DNA of 64,000 bases from assembly GCA_028717685.1 (NCBI GenBank), contig JAQUNI010000001.1:54306-118305 (forward strand). Reading direction: 5' to 3'. This DNA comes from Patescibacteria group bacterium. GTDB lineage: Bacteria > Patescibacteriota > JAQUNI01. Under the pieces are notes generated by a model. The model saw only the letters and a program-made list of their open reading frames with translations. It did not search any database and was not told where the DNA came from. This document shows positions 5,790 to 30,505 of this stretch, one piece after another. A program made the translations under genes and the position numbers. Each line of letters starts with the position of its first letter. Positions within the stretch are counted from its first letter, which is position 1.

Positions 5790-5889
5790 AATAAAAGGCC
5801 CTTTTTTTTATCAATTTAATGAGGTAAAATAGGAGAAGGAATGAAATTATTCTACCTTGAATTACGAAATTCATTTGTCTATTAGCAGG

Positions 5890-5964
5890 CTATTCTCCCT
5901 CCCCCTCCAACTCCCCCTCGGGCAGGGGGAGTGTAATCAAGCTTATCGCTAATAGACGATACAT
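5890..5964. repeat. C-tract/G-tract hairpin repeat, copy A (also at 26135-26209)
   Basis: ctattctccctccccctcc..ctccccctcgggcagggggagtgtaatcaagct is shared almost exactly with 26135-26209. It contains the stem ctccccc/gggggag. Upstream, 5853-5880 also resembles 26048-26075. Confidence 0.8.
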
Positions 5965-19933: not shown

Positions 19934-20085
19934 ATTTCTAATTTTCAATTTCTAATTTCTATTAAATTTTTAATTTTAAAATTTTCAAACACCATTAGAA
20001 ATGAAAAATTTCTAGACGGGATAAACCTTTTAAAAATTAATTCATTAGAAATTTAATAAAAATTGAAAATTAGAAATTGAAAATT
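19932..20085. repeat. heptamer-array hairpin element, copy 2 (direct repeat of 18065-18176)
   Basis: It has the same arms as copy 1. Its loop carries about 50 extra nt, including a degenerate ttagaaat...atttctag palindrome (19991-20020). Confidence 0.75.
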
Positions 20086-21136
20086 ACTTATAATACACCA
20101 ATCCCTGCACCCTTAAATCAATATAGTATTTAATTTCTTTATTATTTTTCCCAATATCCTCTTTGAAAACTAAGGTTAAAGCTTCAAGTTGGTTTTGCAA
20201 GCTCTGTCTAGTGTCAAAAAATATTTGATAACCTTTGTCCGTTTTTATATACAAGTCGCGGGAATCAGAAATCGGCACAATGAATTCTTGGATTTTCAAA
20301 TCCGTCTTTAGAGATAACAAATCCCGCACTTGAAAAAGGAAACTTAAAAAAGAGGGGTCTAAAATCTGCTCGCGCGGTTCTACTTTTTTAAAAGACTGAT
20401 CATAAAGAACGGGTAATCCCTTTTCCCATACCGTTTCCTCGGGAATTTCCTCGCCGATTATTCCTTCCGCATCTAAAAAGTGATAAAGAATAGTGGGATT
20501 TTCGGGATAGGAGGTTGGAGTCAAGATGGCTTGTGACTCTTTATCTTTAACTTCCCCGATTTCCTCCCTACTCGTAGAATCACTGGCAAAAGCTTCAGGG
20601 GGTAAAAATAAATCCTGCGGCGCGCCATTTGCCCAAATCGCTTTCGGCTCCCTCTCGGTAATGATAATTTTTAAAACATCGGGGAATTCTTTTTTAATGT
20701 CTATTTTCTCAATCTGGGCAAAATGGGCATAGATTACGCTGCTTAAATGCTTTTTACCCGCAATAATCAAATTTTCTTTGGGAAAAATAAAGGCGCGTCC
20801 CTTTAAATTCTCGCGCGCCAAATTTTCCACATCTTCACCCTTGACATTAACATTGCCTACCACTACAATCTCCTTGATTTGCCAGAACGGAAAAAAGAAT
20901 AAAAAATAAACAAGCGAACCTAACGCAAGCAAAAAAAGGAAAAAGGCAATTTTCCGCTGCAAATGTCCCGAAGCCTCGCGGACGCGAAAACGAGGAGTCG
21001 CGAGATAAATCCTCGGGCTCGCTAAGGTCCGCTTTTTCCTAAAAAACCCGCGTTTCCACTCCACTTTCCTTTTGCGGGATTTTTGTTTATACGGGTTTAA
21101 GTATAATTTTTTGCGGCTGGGTTTATGAGAAAACAC
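20084..21136 (-). CDS. FtsQ/DivIB-like cell division protein (POTRA domain)
   Basis: 350 aa with a basic N-tail, a single TM, then the POTRA-like WQIKEIVVVGNVNV...LKIIITEREPKAIW. The ORF-track start is GTG. Confidence 0.65.
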   Translation of the reverse strand: MFSHKPSRKKLYLNPYKQKSRKRKVEWKRGFFRKKRTLASPRIYLATPRFRVREASGHLQRKIAFFLFLLALGSLVYFLFFFPFWQIKEIVVVGNVNVKGEDVENLARENLKGRAFIFPKENLIIAGKKHLSSVIYAHFAQIEKIDIKKEFPDVLKIIITEREPKAIWANGAPQDLFLPPEAFASDSTSREEIGEVKDKESQAILTPTSYPENPTILYHFLDAEGIIGEEIPEETVWEKGLPVLYDQSFKKVEPREQILDPSFLSFLFQVRDLLSLKTDLKIQEFIVPISDSRDLYIKTDKGYQIFFDTRQSLQNQLEALTLVFKEDIGKNNKEIKYYIDLRVQGLVYYK

Positions 21137-21904: not shown

Positions 21905-22165
21905 ATGGCGGAAGGTTTAAATATAAAACTAAGCCCTGTCCAAAGCTTAACAGCAAGAATAATCGCTGGAAAAGAAAATATGACAGGAGAAGAAATAATA
22001 ACTGTCGCCCTAAACCTATATGAAACCGTACAGGGTGAGCTAGACTCATCACCTGACCGAGTAACCTTAGCGTTGGTGAAAAACGATGGAGAAATTTACA
22101 AGGAAATAATTCTCCCTAACCATATTCCTATACTACCCGCCCACACCGATATAATTTCAATATAA
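21905..22165 (+). CDS. hypothetical small protein (paralog of 22194-22469)
   Basis: 86 aa with SD caggagg upstream. It shares the pattern AL.....EL.S......LALV......I.KEI.LP with the next ORF. Confidence 0.55.
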   Translation: MAEGLNIKLSPVQSLTARIIAGKENMTGEEIITVALNLYETVQGELDSSPDRVTLALVKNDGEIYKEIILPNHIPILPAHTDIISI

Positions 22166-22193: not shown

Positions 22194-22469
22194 ATGTCAG
22201 AGTTGAGTATCACATTTAGTAAGAACTGGAGTGCCGAGATAACAAGAATGGCTGAAAAAAGGGGAATAGAACCAAAAAACTTGATTTTAGACGCGCTGAC
22301 TGTATTATCAGCCTTAGAAGAAGAACTAGCTTCTGGAGAGGGAAAACAAGGTTTAGCTTTAGTAAGCCCCCGTTTCCGAATCAGAAAAGAAATAGTGCTT
22401 CCCCGTTATTCCTCTAAACTATTAACAAAGAATGCGCTCACAATAGAGCCCACACTCGCCGTAGACTAA
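22194..22469 (+). CDS. hypothetical small protein, possibly ribbon-helix-helix-like
   Basis: 91 aa with SD agggagg upstream. The N-terminus ITFSKNWSAEITRMAEKRGIEPKNLILDALTVL has a strand-helix-helix look, by pattern only. Confidence 0.55.
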   Translation: MSELSITFSKNWSAEITRMAEKRGIEPKNLILDALTVLSALEEELASGEGKQGLALVSPRFRIRKEIVLPRYSSKLLTKNALTIEPTLAVD

Positions 22470-22639: not shown

Positions 22640-23926
22640 CTACCTCTTAATCTCTTTGAACCCACAATACTTCTGCAAAATCTTGGGCACTTCAATGGAA
22701 CCGTCTTTGCGCTGGTAATTTTCCATAATCGCAATTAAAACCCTACCAATCGCAATAGCAGTAGAGTTGATAGTATGGACAAATTTTTTATTCCCTTTCT
22801 CGTCTTTATATTTGATATTCAGACGGCGCGCTTGGAAATCCGTGTCGTGACTCGCCGAAACTACCTCGCGATAACAACTCTCTGACGGCAGCCAAGCTTC
22901 TAAGTCAATTTTTTTAGCATTAGGCGCGCCCAGATCGCCGGTTGCGATATTCACGGCTTGATAATGAATTCCCAAGCCCTGCCAAATTTCTTCCACGATT
23001 TTAACAATCATTTCGTAAACTTGCCACGAATCTTCTTGCGTAGCGAACGCGAACATTTCCAGTTTATCAAATTGATGCCCCCGCAAAATTCCTTTTAAAT
23101 CCTTACCATAAGCGCCAGCCTCCCGCCGAAAGCAAGACGAAAAACCCATATAAAGTTTTGGTTTCCCGGGGGCTAGCCCCAAAATCTCGTCCATATGGTA
23201 CGCTGCAAGCACAACCTCGGCAGTGCCAATTAAATATAATTTTTCTTTTTCATCACCCGTGAGCTCATAAATCTCATTTTTATCCGCGGGGAAGAAGCCT
23301 GTGCCATACATCGCGGCTTCGCGCACGAGCATAGGCGGCAGGATCGGAGTAAAACCTTTTTTAATTAAAATATCTAAGACATATTGTATAAGAGCAAATT
23401 CCAGGCTCACAAGCTCGTTTTTTAGATACCAAAAACGGGCGCCTGAAACCTGCGCGCCTTTTTTAATATCTATTAAATCCAAAGCCTCTCCCAATTCATA
23501 ATGGGATTTGGGTTTAAAATCAAATTTTGATGGCTCTCCCCATTGATGATCCACCGCGTTGCCAGAAGCATCCGACGCCACTGACACAGAATGATCCGAA
23601 AGATTGGGAAATTGATCTAATAAAATTTTGATCTCCGCTTCTTTCTTCTCCAATTCCTCCCTTAAAACCTGCAATTGCTCCTTGTTCTTTTTCATTCCCA
23701 TAATCATCTTGGCTTTTTCCTCCTCGCCCTGCGTCTGCACAACCTTTGCTGAAAATTCGTTCTTGACTTGTTCCAACTCATTTTTCTTTTGAATTAATGC
23801 CCGCCGTTTTTTATCCCAATCTAAAAATTCATCCACTTTTCCTGATGGCATTGCCTTTAAATGGCGATTTTTTAATTCTTGGCGCCAGAGGTCTGGCTGT
23901 TCGCGCAATAATTTTATGTCAATCAT
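22640..23926 (-). CDS. serS: serine--tRNA ligase
   Basis: 428 aa. N-terminal coiled-coil arm and class II motifs CFRREAG and NSTAIAIGRVLIAIMEN. Confidence 0.95.
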   Translation of the reverse strand: MIDIKLLREQPDLWRQELKNRHLKAMPSGKVDEFLDWDKKRRALIQKKNELEQVKNEFSAKVVQTQGEEEKAKMIMGMKKNKEQLQVLREELEKKEAEIKILLDQFPNLSDHSVSVASDASGNAVDHQWGEPSKFDFKPKSHYELGEALDLIDIKKGAQVSGARFWYLKNELVSLEFALIQYVLDILIKKGFTPILPPMLVREAAMYGTGFFPADKNEIYELTGDEKEKLYLIGTAEVVLAAYHMDEILGLAPGKPKLYMGFSSCFRREAGAYGKDLKGILRGHQFDKLEMFAFATQEDSWQVYEMIVKIVEEIWQGLGIHYQAVNIATGDLGAPNAKKIDLEAWLPSESCYREVVSASHDTDFQARRLNIKYKDEKGNKKFVHTINSTAIAIGRVLIAIMENYQRKDGSIEVPKILQKYCGFKEIKR

Positions 23927-23950: not shown

Positions 23951-26068
23951 TTAAAGTCCTAAATTTTGAGATATATCTTGCATCGCCCGGAGGCCGATTT
24001 TCACAAACTCTTCTAAAGATAAACCAAAGGATTCACAAGAAGTAATTACTTCTCGCCGCGCGCCTTGGGCGAAGGATTTTTCTTTAAATCTCTTTAAGAT
24101 AGACTGCATTGATAAATCAGATAATTTTTTTGATGGCAAAACCAAGGTGGCAGCCACAATCAAACCAGTCAAAGGATCCACAGCGTAAATCGCTTTTTCC
24201 ATCAAGGTTTTGCGAGGCGCGCCGCATTGATCATTATGCGCCTTAATGCCAACCAAAATTACGGGATGCACTCCTTCCTGCTCTAAAATCCCTACGGTGG
24301 TCGGACCGTGTTTTTCCGGCGCTTCGCGATAATCAAACATTTCCATATCTAAGTCGTGCAGAAGACCAGTAAGCCCCCAGACTTCCTTATTCTTTTGAAA
24401 ATGCTTGGCAAGAGCAGCCATTATCGCTTCCGTTGCCAACATATGTTTGCGCGAATTTTCATTCTTCACATATTGGCAAACCAAATCCCAAGCTTTGGCG
24501 CGCGTAATCCCTAGGTTCTCTGCCTCTTCGTTTTGAGCGGGCGCTTTTGTCGCTGGACAGACCTTTTGCGTATTTAATGGTTTCATTAAAGGAAAAAATA
24601 CTGCCTCACGGATGCTCGGAGCGTTGGTTAAAAACATTACCAGACGATCAATACCCATGCCCCAACCCGCGATCGGCGGCATTCCGTATTCCATTGCCCG
24701 CACATAATCTTCATCCATCATATGCGCCTCCGCGTCTCCCGCTTCCCGCATTTCAACCTGTTCTTCAAAACGCCTACGCTGCTCCAGAGGGTCAACTAAC
24801 TCAGAATAAGCATTGACTAATTCCTGCCCTAAAACCACTAACTGAAAACGATCCACAATCTTTGGATTCTGGTCATTCCTGCGCGCCAAGGGCGATAATT
24901 CAATGGGATGACCAGTTAGAAAAAGGGGACCTTTAATTTTCGGCCGCGAAACCTTTTTGTATAATTGATCTACTAAACCCCCAAAGCCTAATTTGCCAAA
25001 GCCTTCAATTTCAATTTTTTTCTTCCGCATTTCCTTTCTAAGTTTCTCCGCGGTATCAGCCTTGTTAATATCAATACCGCAATCTTCCAAAATCAAGCTT
25101 CCAAAATTTTTTCTCTGCCAAGGAGGAGTAAAATCTATTTTCTGACCTTGATAGTCAATCTGCAAGCTCCCAAAAACGCGGTTTAAGAGATAAACCAACA
25201 TTTCTTCAGTTTGCGCCATTAAAAATTCATAATTTTTGTAAGCCCAATAAAATTCCAGCATCGTAAAATCTTGAAGATGGGCGGTGTCCATTCCTTCATT
25301 GCGAAAAACCCGCGCCATCTCAAAAACCTTTTCCAAACCGCCTACAATTAAGCGCTTCAAATATGTTTCCGGCGCAATCCTTAAATACAAGGGAATTTGC
25401 AGGGCTTCGTGCTCTGTAATGAAAGGACGCGCGAGCGCGCCCGAAGCCTTGGTTTGAAGCACTGGCGTCTCCACCTCCAAAAAACCCCTCTCCGTCAGAA
25501 AATCACGCAGGGCATCGCAGATCTCCGCGCGCTTTTTGAAACGCTCACGCACTTCCGGATGAACAAGCAGATCCAAATAACGTTCCCGAAATCTAATCTC
25601 TTGATTAGAGAGACCTTTCCATTTTTCCGGCAAAGGACGGATGGATTTAGCGAGAATTTTATAATCGGAAACGAGGAGGGTTCTTTCCCCTTTCCGAGTG
25701 ACAAATACGGTTCCTTGGAGTTCAATAAAGTCGCCAATGTCAAAATTTTTAAAAAATTTGTATTTCTCCGGACCTGAAATGTCTTTTTTGAGATAAGCTT
25801 GGATTCTGCCGCTTTCATCATCAATATGGATGAAGGTAGAGCCGCCGTGTTCGCGAATGTTGCGTATGCGCCCCGCGACCACAATCTCGCCTTTTTCTTT
25901 TTCTATGGCTTCAAAATCATCCAATATTTTTTTGACTGTATGCGTCCGACGCGAAGAATCAGGGTAAGGATTGATTTCGGCTTTTAAAATTTTATTCAAT
26001 TTTTCTTTGCGATTTTGGATTAAATCTTTAAGCATATATTTTATTATACCTTGAGTTACGAAATTCAT
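23951..26068 (-). CDS. lysS: lysine--tRNA ligase (class II) fused to a C-terminal HD-domain hydrolase
   Basis: 705 aa. OB fold plus class II core (FRNEGMDTAHLQDFTMLE, GWGMGIDRLVM), then about 190 extra residues with H...HD...D (HMLATEA, LLHDLD, HND). The true start may be Met12 (26035). Confidence 0.9.
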   Translation of the reverse strand: MNFVTQGIIKYMLKDLIQNRKEKLNKILKAEINPYPDSSRRTHTVKKILDDFEAIEKEKGEIVVAGRIRNIREHGGSTFIHIDDESGRIQAYLKKDISGPEKYKFFKNFDIGDFIELQGTVFVTRKGERTLLVSDYKILAKSIRPLPEKWKGLSNQEIRFRERYLDLLVHPEVRERFKKRAEICDALRDFLTERGFLEVETPVLQTKASGALARPFITEHEALQIPLYLRIAPETYLKRLIVGGLEKVFEMARVFRNEGMDTAHLQDFTMLEFYWAYKNYEFLMAQTEEMLVYLLNRVFGSLQIDYQGQKIDFTPPWQRKNFGSLILEDCGIDINKADTAEKLRKEMRKKKIEIEGFGKLGFGGLVDQLYKKVSRPKIKGPLFLTGHPIELSPLARRNDQNPKIVDRFQLVVLGQELVNAYSELVDPLEQRRRFEEQVEMREAGDAEAHMMDEDYVRAMEYGMPPIAGWGMGIDRLVMFLTNAPSIREAVFFPLMKPLNTQKVCPATKAPAQNEEAENLGITRAKAWDLVCQYVKNENSRKHMLATEAIMAALAKHFQKNKEVWGLTGLLHDLDMEMFDYREAPEKHGPTTVGILEQEGVHPVILVGIKAHNDQCGAPRKTLMEKAIYAVDPLTGLIVAATLVLPSKKLSDLSMQSILKRFKEKSFAQGARREVITSCESFGLSLEEFVKIGLRAMQDISQNLGL

Positions 26069-26134
26069 TTTGTTATTGTGGGAGATTTTTCCTCCTCTTG
26101 ACCTGCGGGAGACAGGGAGGGGTCTAATAAATGA

Positions 26135-26209
26135 CTATTCTCCCTCCCCCTCCGCCTCCCCCTCGGGCAGGGGGAGTGTAATCAAGCTCCTCGTTAATAG
26201 ATGACATAT
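26135..26209. repeat. C-tract/G-tract hairpin repeat, copy B (see 5890-5964)
   Basis: About 88% identical by eye to 5890-5964 over 75 nt. It lies in the region upstream of lysS, on the opposite strand relative to the gene. Confidence 0.8.
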
Positions 26210-26259
26210 TCCGCAATTCAAGGTCTTTAATATATTATACCAAAAACCGTAAATTTTAC

Positions 26260-26294
26260 CAAACAAAAACAGAGACGCAAAATTTCACGTCTCT
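26260..26294 (-). terminator. Rho-independent terminator after greA (AGAGACG family)
   Basis: The minus strand reads agagacg tgaaattttg cgtctct gtttttgttt. That is a 7-bp stem with a U-rich tail, 29 nt after the greA stop. Confidence 0.65.
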
Positions 26295-26322
26295 ACGCAT
26301 AAAATATTTATCATCCCTCTCC

Positions 26323-26781
26323 TTAAGATATTTCCAAAATTTTGTATTCTATCTTACCACCCGGGGTCTCCACCTCTACTGTATCTCCTTTTTTCTTACC
26401 AAGAAGCGCCTGACCAATCGGGCTTTCATTAGAAATCTTCCCCAATGGAGGGTCAGCCTCGTTGGAGCCGACAATAGTAAATTCCTTCTCGCTGGCATTA
26501 TTTTTCACCTTCACACTGTTTCCCACTGCCACAATATTATGCTGACCATTTTTATCAATAATAACCGCATTTTTAATCGTATTTTCAATCTCTATGATCT
26601 TTCCTTCATTAAAAGCCTGTTCATCCTTTGCGTCTTGGTATTCCGCGTTTTCAGAAAGATCGCCCAGTTCCTTGGCTACTTTAATCCGATTGGCAATTTC
26701 TCTTCTCTTGACTGTCTTGATAAACTCCAATTTTTCTTTTAATTTTTTAAGCCCTTCGGCAGTAATATATTTCTTTGTCAT
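26323..26781 (-). CDS. greA: transcription elongation factor GreA
   Basis: The start is taken at internal Met12 of ORF 26323-26814, giving MTKKYITAEGLKKLKEKLEF. DLSENAEYQDAK and the C-terminal FKBP-like domain fit GreA. Confidence 0.9.
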   Translation of the reverse strand: MTKKYITAEGLKKLKEKLEFIKTVKRREIANRIKVAKELGDLSENAEYQDAKDEQAFNEGKIIEIENTIKNAVIIDKNGQHNIVAVGNSVKVKNNASEKEFTIVGSNEADPPLGKISNESPIGQALLGKKKGDTVEVETPGGKIEYKILEIS

Positions 26782-26947
26782 ATTTTGTAAGTTTTTTAAA
26801 ATGCGCTTACGCACTATATAAGCACATTTCTAGAGTTTTCTATTTAATTTAATATCACCATCATAATCCAAGGAAAAGGTGATGTCAAGAGGATAAATCA
26901 AATGCAAACTTTAAAAATCAAGATGCCTGCCTAAGCTGTTACTTAAG

Positions 26948-29950: not shown

Positions 29951-30505
29951 TTATTTAATTTGTTCTTCTGTCTTTAATAATACAGAATAACAATATCTTA
30001 ATATCCTGTAGCTCAATATTGTCACCGCTAAATTATAAAATATTGTGGGCAAAACCAGATATTTTAAATCATAAAATAAATCTATTTGAAGATCGCTTAA
30101 GCGCATCCAGCTAAAAAGTTTTACCAAAATAATCAGGGCTAAATTGTAAATCATACTGCCTAAAATAGTCATGAGAATAATCGCGCTCACGCCCCTTTCT
30201 CTGAATAACTTAAGAGATAATATTCTGACCAAGAAGATAACTAAAATAAAACTTAGAGTTACCACCCCGAAAGGAAGACTGGAACTAAAGTCTAAAAAAA
30301 GCAAAAATGGGAAATACCATTTCAAGGTTGTCTTGACTCCGAGGGTAAGAAAACAAATTAAGAAACCAATCAAAATAAAGTTTGGCCTCGCTAATCCAAT
30401 ACTTAAATGAGGTCCCCAAACCAACTCCAGAAAAAGTAAAAATAATAAAATCAGCAAGAAAAAAAATTTATTCATAATAGTTAAGCTTGCGGCAAAATTC
30501 TCCAT
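29951..30505 (-). CDS. mreD: rod shape-determining protein MreD
   Basis: 184 aa with about five TM helices, positioned between mreC and mrdA. The call is by synteny and topology. The start may be Met11. Confidence 0.6.
   Translation of the reverse strand: MENFAASLTIMNKFFFLLILLFLLFLELVWGPHLSIGLARPNFILIGFLICFLTLGVKTTLKWYFPFLLFLDFSSSLPFGVVTLSFILVIFLVRILSLKLFRERGVSAIILMTILGSMIYNLALIILVKLFSWMRLSDLQIDLFYDLKYLVLPTIFYNLAVTILSYRILRYCYSVLLKTEEQIK

Follow-up and report, generated by a model that had tools for sequence, protein, structure and literature searches.

The question raised by the lysS gene treated here is why a lysyl-tRNA synthetase (LysRS) should carry a putative phosphohydrolase on the same polypeptide, and on what that second enzyme would act. 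The gene is located on contig JAQUNI010000001.1 of a Patescibacteria group bacterium (GCA_028717685.1), in a stretch of 64 kb which was analysed as a whole and is referred to as the window. An initial annotation of the window had noted an HD domain behind the synthetase core and had suggested that synthesis and degradation of diadenosine tetraphosphate (Ap4A) might be coupled in one polypeptide. LysRS is the main source of Ap4A in cells, and it has long been debated whether Ap4A acts as a signal or is a by-product of damage. The LysRS-HD fusion turned out to be a real architecture, widespread across several bacterial phyla; its HD module is predicted to retain a full dinuclear metal site, is remotely homologous to the Ap4A hydrolase YqeK and belongs to a family that is repeatedly encoded next to lysS.

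The lysS::HD gene (23951..26068, minus strand; Table 1) forms one open frame of 705 amino acids (aa). Residues 14-497 reached 563 bits against the NCBIfam model lysS_bact (TIGR00499; cut-off 427.6), which places the protein among the bacterial LysRS, and the LysRS part scored 629.6 bits against PRK00484 (cut-off 468). This part is predicted to be a complete and functional class II lysyl-tRNA synthetase. The end of the class II core, initially placed near REAVFFPLMKP, was located at aa 487-497. It is followed by 208 residues instead of the approximately 190 stated at first, namely a linker of 23 aa (498-520) and the HD module of 185 aa (521-705); the interval 23951-24526 marked earlier corresponds to aa 515-705 plus the stop codon. 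The length of 705 aa given in the initial annotation held for the frame, while the real protein is probably shorter. The start region (26033-26068, minus strand) is ambiguous: the longest open reading frame (ORF) begins at 26068, and a start at M12 (26035) results in 694 aa. Since all close homologues begin at the equivalent of M12 and the first 11 codons (33 nucleotides (nt) before M12) overlap a repeated intergenic element, the true product probably comprises 694 aa with its start at 26035. The AGGAGG closest to the first ATG was found 22 nt upstream of it, and a TATAAT, which is kept in a 95%-identical relative, immediately precedes the ATG of M12.

In many Patescibacteria lysS and a separate HD gene are adjacent or even overlapping, and one sequencing error could join them; the fusion might thus be an artefact of assembly, a frameshift or a lost stop codon. 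A scan of the junction DNA revealed neither a stop nor a frameshift between LysRS and the HD module, and the module lacks a separate start codon: Met1 of the stand-alone proteins is aligned with I521 (ATT). A relative of 694 aa, the 95%-identical one mentioned above, was found in NCBI, JGI, ENA and Logan data (one source: Candidatus Doudnabacteria), on independent contigs with the gene order of the window (mreB-mreC-x-PBP2-folD-greA-lysS::HD-serS). In the full-length search the next fusions followed at 81, 72, 70, 69 and 68% identity and then approximately 110 at 42-55%. A continuous fusion gene was also present at the loci L007, L089, L091 and L104, and where unfused genes may overlap, the fusions possess a dedicated linker that is never shorter than 10 aa. 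A frameshift or missed stop in independent assemblies, named at the outset as what would speak against the fusion, was not found; the same continuous gene is present there. The artefact is effectively refuted by these assemblies, and its probability is practically negligible.

A homologous tail over its whole length (30-94% identity in a BLAST search of the tail) was detected in 117 of the 120 best full-length matches, a figure that is too high, since the tail adds to the score of fused proteins and a full-length ranking rewards them. Patescibacteria, Spirochaetes and Planctomycetota are among the source names of the fusions. To offset the ranking bias, loci were retrieved with the LysRS core alone. 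Among the four closest relatives in this core-only sample, those with 84, 73 and 59% identity were fused and the one with 76% was not, and all of the 76 distant LysRS (45-51% identity) end 0-12 aa past the core. No HD gene was found downstream of the distant unfused LysRS in the 33 of these 76 with enough downstream sequence. Among LysRS generally the fusion is a minority architecture, but within the clade of the window it is conserved; the survey of related genomes recommended initially was answered in the affirmative, by independent assemblies as well as by the best matches. A database search with the tail alone listed only stand-alone proteins and missed the fusions, among them the 95%-identical relative, which is a quirk of candidate selection and not biology. 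The fusions are named 'lysine--tRNA ligase' in the databases and the stand-alone proteins 'HD/HDIG domain-containing protein'. Full-text literature searches retrieved no paper describing the LysRS-HD fusion or its HD family. Its proteins can nevertheless already be found in public databases under the names given above.

Across the 117 fusions the linkers range from 10 to 187 aa (median 29), are unconserved and rich in A, E, D, P and K. In the AlphaFold2 (AF2) model of the full-length window protein, with a predicted local distance difference test score (pLDDT) of 93.3 and a predicted template modelling score (pTM) of 0.75, aa 501-514 were below a pLDDT of 50. Since the linkers are variable and unconserved and this segment is of such low confidence in the model, the linker is read as a flexible tether with no fixed interface. 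The pTM of 0.75 together with the disordered linker suggests two bodies that would fold independently; modelled alone, the HD module reached a pLDDT of 95.3 and a pTM of 0.92.

The profile search on the tail proposed in the initial annotation gave a match to Pfam HD (PF01966, aa 541-617) of 25.6 bits with the full protein and 27.9 bits with the tail, above the gathering cut-off of 22, and a match at the threshold of the HDIG model TIGR00277 (25.0, 27.4 and 27.7 bits with different constructs; cut-off 27.6). The HDIG model was matched by all 50 family members tested (best E-value 7e-17), and these profiles clearly place the family in the HDIG branch of HD proteins, with the window copy as a borderline case. 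The motifs pointed out earlier were all present, with H542 in KHMLATEA, H571-D572 in LLHDLD and H611-N612-D613 in AHND. H542, H571, D572, H587, H611 and D631 are predicted to form a full six-ligand dinuclear set for two metal ions. Loss of ligands upon proper alignment, a further objection considered initially, was not seen, as all six align with the ligands of YqeK. The full set was kept in 94 of the 117 fusions. H571, D574, H611, G635, A639, F666, A667 and R672 are 100% conserved in the family, and N612 and K647 are also counted among its invariants; all of these residues are found in the window protein. The family-specific C-terminal lobe contains a conserved basic segment (aa 645-672), in which P645, K647, F666, A667 and R672 are invariant or near-invariant and which is a candidate for a phosphate- or substrate-binding patch.

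When the family profile was compared with 177,635 PDB sequences, only five entries were matched, all of the YqeK family (E-values 4e-6 to 2.5e-4), and hhalign against 28 YqeK sequences resulted in a probability of 97.7% (E-value 2e-12, 30% identity over 112 columns). The dinuclear site of YqeK is built from H21/H50/D127 and D51/H83/H109 (GtYqeK; PMC13627108). These residues align to H542/H571/D631 and D572/H587/H611 of LysRS-HD, and every one of them is kept. YqeK (COG1713; bis(5'-nucleosyl)-tetraphosphatase, symmetrical) is an Ap4A/Ap4N hydrolase and Np4-decapping enzyme of Firmicutes that splits Ap4A into 2 ADP. Both YqeK and the HD module are small (approximately 185-200 aa), all-helical HD proteins, and both are logically linked to by-products of aminoacyl-tRNA synthetases. 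With PDB matches limited to YqeK and six ligands aligned, the comparison with YqeK drawn in the initial annotation is better than a loose analogy. As far as the profile matches tell, YqeK is the sole relative with a solved structure and among the few characterised ones. YqeK has an insertion of approximately 17 aa, placed after the HD doublet and before its third His, that is absent from the LysRS-HD tail; the tail carries the motif HDxD versus HDYAK in YqeK. Unlike this HD module, YqeK is not known to be fused to LysRS; it is encoded in a nadD-yqeK-rsfS neighbourhood. The restriction of the structural matches to YqeK also bears on the idea that the module hydrolyses another signalling nucleotide ((p)ppGpp/(p)ppApp, c-di-AMP, c-di-GMP or pApA) and thereby links translation capacity to second-messenger turnover. 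That idea is improbable, as it would leave the specific, repeated partnership with LysRS unexplained, and GYP and Mesh1/SAH-type motifs were not seen at conserved positions.

The closest relatives of the tail are stand-alone proteins of approximately 185 aa with 54-66% identity, of which the named ones belong to Patescibacteria/Parcubacteria. In an exhaustive profile search, 350 clusters (50% identity) passed the limit of E<=1e-30, and 2,156 passed the looser one of E<=1e-10; the best 150 clusters included 113 stand-alone proteins and at least 21 LysRS fusions. Among 80 genome loci retrieved with the HD profile, one was a fusion, and at 27 the HD gene was immediately preceded by lysS in the same orientation. 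In the 26 unfused pairs in which it could be measured, the gap between the end of lysS and the start of the HD gene had a median of 3.5 nt; 18 pairs lay within 30 nt and seven overlapped by 4-11 nt. Such short or overlapping gaps indicate a putative translational coupling of the two genes. In a neighbour-joining tree of 238 modules, the window clade of seven fusions was nested within stand-alone clades, and the history of LysRS-HD would comprise at least three fusion or fission events. Judged from these loci, the HD family of Patescibacteria is normally a separate protein of approximately 185 aa in tandem with LysRS, to which it appears to have been fused repeatedly. The window protein has the hallmarks of this lysS-linked family, with a module of approximately 185 aa, all invariant residues and the fusion to lysS, and the recurrent Patescibacteria operon PBP2-greA-lysS-HD-serS is found in the same order in the window.

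LysRS is a documented producer of Ap4A (PMC13627108, introduction), and seryl-tRNA synthetase (SerRS) is given as another one where PMC8464048 cites Belrhali 1995. The HD gene of the Patescibacteria operon is therefore located between the genes of two Ap4A-making synthetases. What the module hydrolyses, and for what physiological purpose, we infer as follows. A tethered dinuclear-metal phosphohydrolase would degrade a nucleotide from the LysRS active site, most plausibly Ap4A or Ap4N and possibly Np4 caps; this is a tentative reading, which we place somewhat short of an even chance. LysRS makes Ap4A and the related Ap4N and Ap3A from lysyl-AMP and ATP; the tethered HD module would hydrolyse the nucleotide formed at the synthetase active site, and the products would be returned to ADP/ATP-type nucleotides, such that a cell with a small genome would neither accumulate nor lose them. 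The substrate would be held by the family-specific residues K647, F666/A667, R672 and D574 in place of those of YqeK, and the module may also strip Np4 caps from RNA, as YqeK does. A further-reaching proposal, by which this self-clearing synthetase represents a new Ap4A/Ap4N hydrolase or Np4-RNA decapping family, coupled physically to the main source of Ap4A and taking the place of YqeK, ApaH and Nudix enzymes in some Spirochaetes and Planctomycetes as well as in Patescibacteria, is possible, if rather doubtful. Motif scans detected no Nudix, HIT or ApaH protein in the 64-kb window, which cannot show a genome-wide absence. If nucleotide clearance by the HD module is true, Ap4A in these cells would be destroyed at its source as a by-product and would not be a freely diffusing alarmone, and an HD family that spans several hundred to some thousands of sequence clusters would receive a function. 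A synthetase with its own YqeK-related hydrolase would be a direct and simple test system for the role of Ap4A.

Several observations, given in this and the following paragraphs, weigh against hydrolysis of Ap4A by the module. Binding and hydrolysis of Ap4A by YqeK require R18, K54 and R133 for the polyphosphate and F135/F163 for stacking of the distal base (PMC13627108). These contacts are replaced in LysRS-HD (R18 by S539, K54 by M575, R133 by L636 and F135 by V638), and the alignment stops at the last ligand Asp, leaving the C-terminal lobe (aa 634-705), including the region of F163, unalignable. The YqeK model TIGR00488 did not match the window tail at E<=1, and the best family member reached approximately 21 bits (E-value 2.3e-6, partial coverage; cut-off 70.15). 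Membership in YqeK is ruled out by these scores, the replaced Ap4A contacts and the unalignable lobe. Other models scored equal to or above YqeK, namely PRK12703, an aTrm56 tRNA methyltransferase fusion that was matched in its HD part (best family E-value 1.4e-11), the NTP transferase model DVU_1551 (4.4e-11), TIGR00295 (4.5e-9) and the HD domain of RNase Y (5e-9). All of these matches are far below the cut-offs, and no NCBIfam equivalog cut-off was reached. On this sequence evidence the module is best described as an unnamed family within the HDIG branch of dinuclear HD phosphodiesterases, a remote homologue of YqeK and not a YqeK.

The matches to RNase Y and PRK12703 direct attention to RNA as a substrate. 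With tRNA-Lys or the ends of RNA as its target, the HD module could be a phosphodiesterase or serve in end healing or cleavage (for example by removal of a 2',3'-cyclic phosphate or 3'-phosphate or by endonucleolytic cleavage), or it could bind the acceptor arm like the beta subunit of glycyl-tRNA synthetase (GlyRS-beta), with LysRS giving specificity in cis. We consider this unlikely, though not negligible. Besides the low level of the two matches (21-35 bits for RNase Y versus a cut-off of 454), partners and genomic context differ from those of RNase Y, and the module is devoid of the KH, transmembrane or GYP elements of RNase Y, PgpH and HD-GYP proteins. No recognisable RNA-binding domain is found in the stand-alone proteins of 185 aa, and the long, variable and disordered linker provides no fixed geometry onto the acceptor arm. 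The HD modules are neutral to acidic overall, which is unusual for an RNA binder (median isoelectric point 5.5 for stand-alone and 6.7 for fused modules), with a single basic conserved segment; this charge profile appears closer to that of a typical nucleotide enzyme than to that of an RNA-binding domain. The HD domain of GlyRS-beta, the only other synthetase-embedded HD domain encountered in the literature found, has lost its catalytic doublet (Ser393/Lys394 in E. coli) and is a rigid, integral part that contacts the tRNA acceptor arm (PMC8464048). Unlike this degenerate domain, LysRS-HD in the window and in most other fusions keeps all ligands, is attached by a disordered linker and also occurs as a free protein. 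If the module acts on tRNA instead of nucleotides, RNA-processing domains of a new kind, appended to a synthetase, would be represented by it.

The ligand set is not retained throughout the family, which is a second point against a hydrolytic role. H587 is replaced by Q in 41 of the 120 stand-alone proteins, and H542Q and D572N occur coupled in 23 fusions, several of them named Planctomycetota (P0169, P0173, P0175, P0184, P0192, P0209, P0231 and 16 others). The tails of this Q542/N572 clade keep K647, F666/A667, R672, H571, H587 and H611, and their tail-to-core identity ratio is 0.98 versus 0.78 in the canonical group. Because these tails are as conserved as the LysRS cores in spite of the missing dyad, the selected function in this clade cannot, by sequence conservation, depend on the canonical HD dyad, and the clade probably represents a conserved, non-hydrolytic version of the domain. 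Only these 23 fusions resemble the non-catalytic state of GlyRS-beta, which the window protein does not share. They speak for an HD module that is mainly a non-catalytic sensor or allosteric regulator of LysRS, binding Ap4A or another nucleotide and tuning aminoacylation or Ap4A synthesis. In the same direction, the H50A/D51A variant of YqeK binds Ap4A without hydrolysis (PMC13627108), and the cavity of the GlyRS-beta HD domain has been suggested to be allosteric (PMC8464048). Such a role is quite improbable, as all ligands are kept in the window protein and in most of the family, which would be costly for binding alone, and as a regulation of LysRS hardly accounts for stand-alone copies at a distance from lysS.

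The genomic distribution adds a third group of such points. No lysS was found within 4 kb at approximately 50 of the 80 loci retrieved with the HD profile. In Bacillota the stand-alone HD gene is located between secG and rnr (RNase R), with smpB next, at 12-14 loci (examples are L049 of Neomoorella carbonis, L042, L059, L070 and L075), and at 13 Bacillota loci a gene for an H+-translocating pyrophosphatase is positioned approximately 550 nt upstream on the same strand. An unfused close relative of the window protein (P0127/P0128) ends in PLMKPLDKQKVCPGAKKSK, which resembles the window linker PLNTQKVCPATKAP, and has an unrelated gene downstream. At the loci L001-L003 (P0128) and L090, with the closest unfused LysRS relatives (75-76% identity), the linker-like C-terminal remnant reads PLDKQKVCPGAKKSK directly before the stop, and a 402-aa gene with no Pfam match follows lysS in place of HD or serS. 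The remnant and the unrelated downstream gene suggest a secondary loss of the HD module, together with a local rearrangement.

Class II LysRS normally lack an editing module. Rare triple fusions carry an insert before the terminal HD module (LysRS-B3_4-HD, LysRS-tRNA_bind-B3_4-HD, LysRS-DUF2000-HD and LysRS-HAD-HD; proteins P0439 with 973 aa, P0494 with 1072 aa, P0167 with 868 aa and P0420 with 918 aa). The best PDB match of the B3_4 insert is CtdA, a trans-editing canavanyl-tRNA deacylase (9f7e, E-value 1.2e-5), which suggests that some LysRS may have acquired an editing-like module via B3_4; the DUF2000 insert of P0167 had no PDB sequence match. Even more unusual would be a variant in which the HD module acts on tRNA-Lys, in end healing or quality control, as part of a C-terminal 'toolkit' together with B3_4, tRNA_bind, DUF2000 and HAD. 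The same HD family was also observed fused to AMMECR1, endonuclease V, PAS-PAS-GGDEF and a PQQ-type beta-propeller (P0388, P0499, P0415 and P0368). The varied genomic contexts and the triple and other fusions complicate a simple Ap4A account. Of the initially proposed coupling of Ap4A synthesis and degradation, the real fusion, the intact ligands and the homology to YqeK stood, and the YqeK contacts did not, being replaced in a module that other models score equally well. Because YqeK membership fails, the contacts are lost, many loci are distant from lysS and the Q542/N572 clade exists, the coupling in one polypeptide is a reasonable hypothesis and not a finding. A class II LysRS with a second catalytic module that handles a LysRS product is likewise present in LysX (MprF-like lysyl-phosphatidylglycerol synthase plus LysRS), of which the model region 621-1100 is matched by the LysRS part of the window protein. 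The partner in LysX is N-terminal and membrane-bound and consumes Lys-tRNA, whereas the partner in LysRS-HD is C-terminal and is predicted to be a soluble HD phosphohydrolase.

Table 1. Features of the lysS::HD locus, in coordinates of the window
Feature	Position	Strand	Basis
lysS::HD fusion gene	23951..26068	(-)	longest ORF, 705 aa; Pfam and NCBIfam matches
OB-fold anticodon-binding domain of LysRS, aa 63-139	25652..25882	(-)	Pfam PF01336, 59.8 bits
Class II catalytic core of LysRS, aa 155-495	24584..25606	(-)	Pfam PF00152 (tRNA-synt_2), 274.6 bits
Low-complexity, putatively flexible linker LNTQKVCPATKAPAQNEEAENLG, aa 498-520	24509..24577	(-)	AF2 pLDDT <50 at aa 501-514
HD (HDIG-type) phosphohydrolase module (predicted), aa 521-705, all-helical	23954..24508	(-)	Pfam HD, 27.9 bits; AF2
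Span of the six predicted ligands	24176..24445	(-)	residue conservation (117 fusion tails, 120 stand-alone proteins); YqeK alignment
H542	24443-24445	(-)	predicted metal ligand
H571-D572	24353-24358	(-)	predicted metal ligands
D574 (invariant)	24347-24349	(-)	family conservation
H587	24308-24310	(-)	predicted metal ligand
H611	within 24233-24238	(-)	predicted metal ligand
D631	24176-24178	(-)	predicted metal ligand
Conserved basic segment PSKKLSDLSMQSILKRFKEKSFAQGARR, aa 645-672	24053..24136	(-)	invariant columns; net charge +5 to +6
serS (seryl-tRNA synthetase)	22640..23926	(-)	Pfam Seryl_tRNA_N and tRNA-synt_2b
greA	26323..26814	(-)	Pfam GreA_GreB
Terminator-like hairpin after greA	26269-26296	(-)	
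Promoter-like site for lysS::HD-serS, TTGGTA-17-TATAAT with TG	26234-26262	(-)	

In the window serS begins 24 nt downstream of lysS::HD and is probably co-transcribed with it; serS follows the HD gene at 17 other loci. The upstream neighbour greA was found at 18 loci, with the same order at L004/L005 and L087. The terminator-like and promoter-like sites between greA and lysS::HD are nearly identical in L087, the independent 95%-identical relative. The lysS leader folds stably (z = -2.8) and contains a G/C-rich hairpin of 67 nt (26135-26201), which recurs at 5890-5956 in an intergenic position with 92.5% identity; a further repeat pair is formed by 26041-26070 and 5847-5876. The central approximately 150 nt of the leader are entirely different in L087, and the hairpin probably represents an intergenic repeat of small size that is mobile or variable. 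A riboswitch or T-box in the leader was rejected, as an Rfam search of the leader gave no match, its centre is unconserved in L087 and the hairpin is repeated elsewhere; because of the copy at 5890-5956, the leader is not regarded as a lysS-specific regulator.

Past serS, two ORFs of 86 and 91 aa (21905-22165 and 22194-22469, plus strand) have the appearance of tandem paralogues, both containing ...AL.L...EL.S......LALV......KEI.LP. Two genes of 91 aa each are found at the same position in L087 and L088, with no Pfam hits on record there. Two further neighbours are conserved. The ORF at 20084-21136 (minus strand, 350 aa) had no Pfam match in the scan and may be FtsQ-like, a faint POTRA_1 match being present in L087. 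The ORF at 29951-30505 (minus strand, 184 aa), likewise with no Pfam match in the scan, is located at the position expected for mreD.

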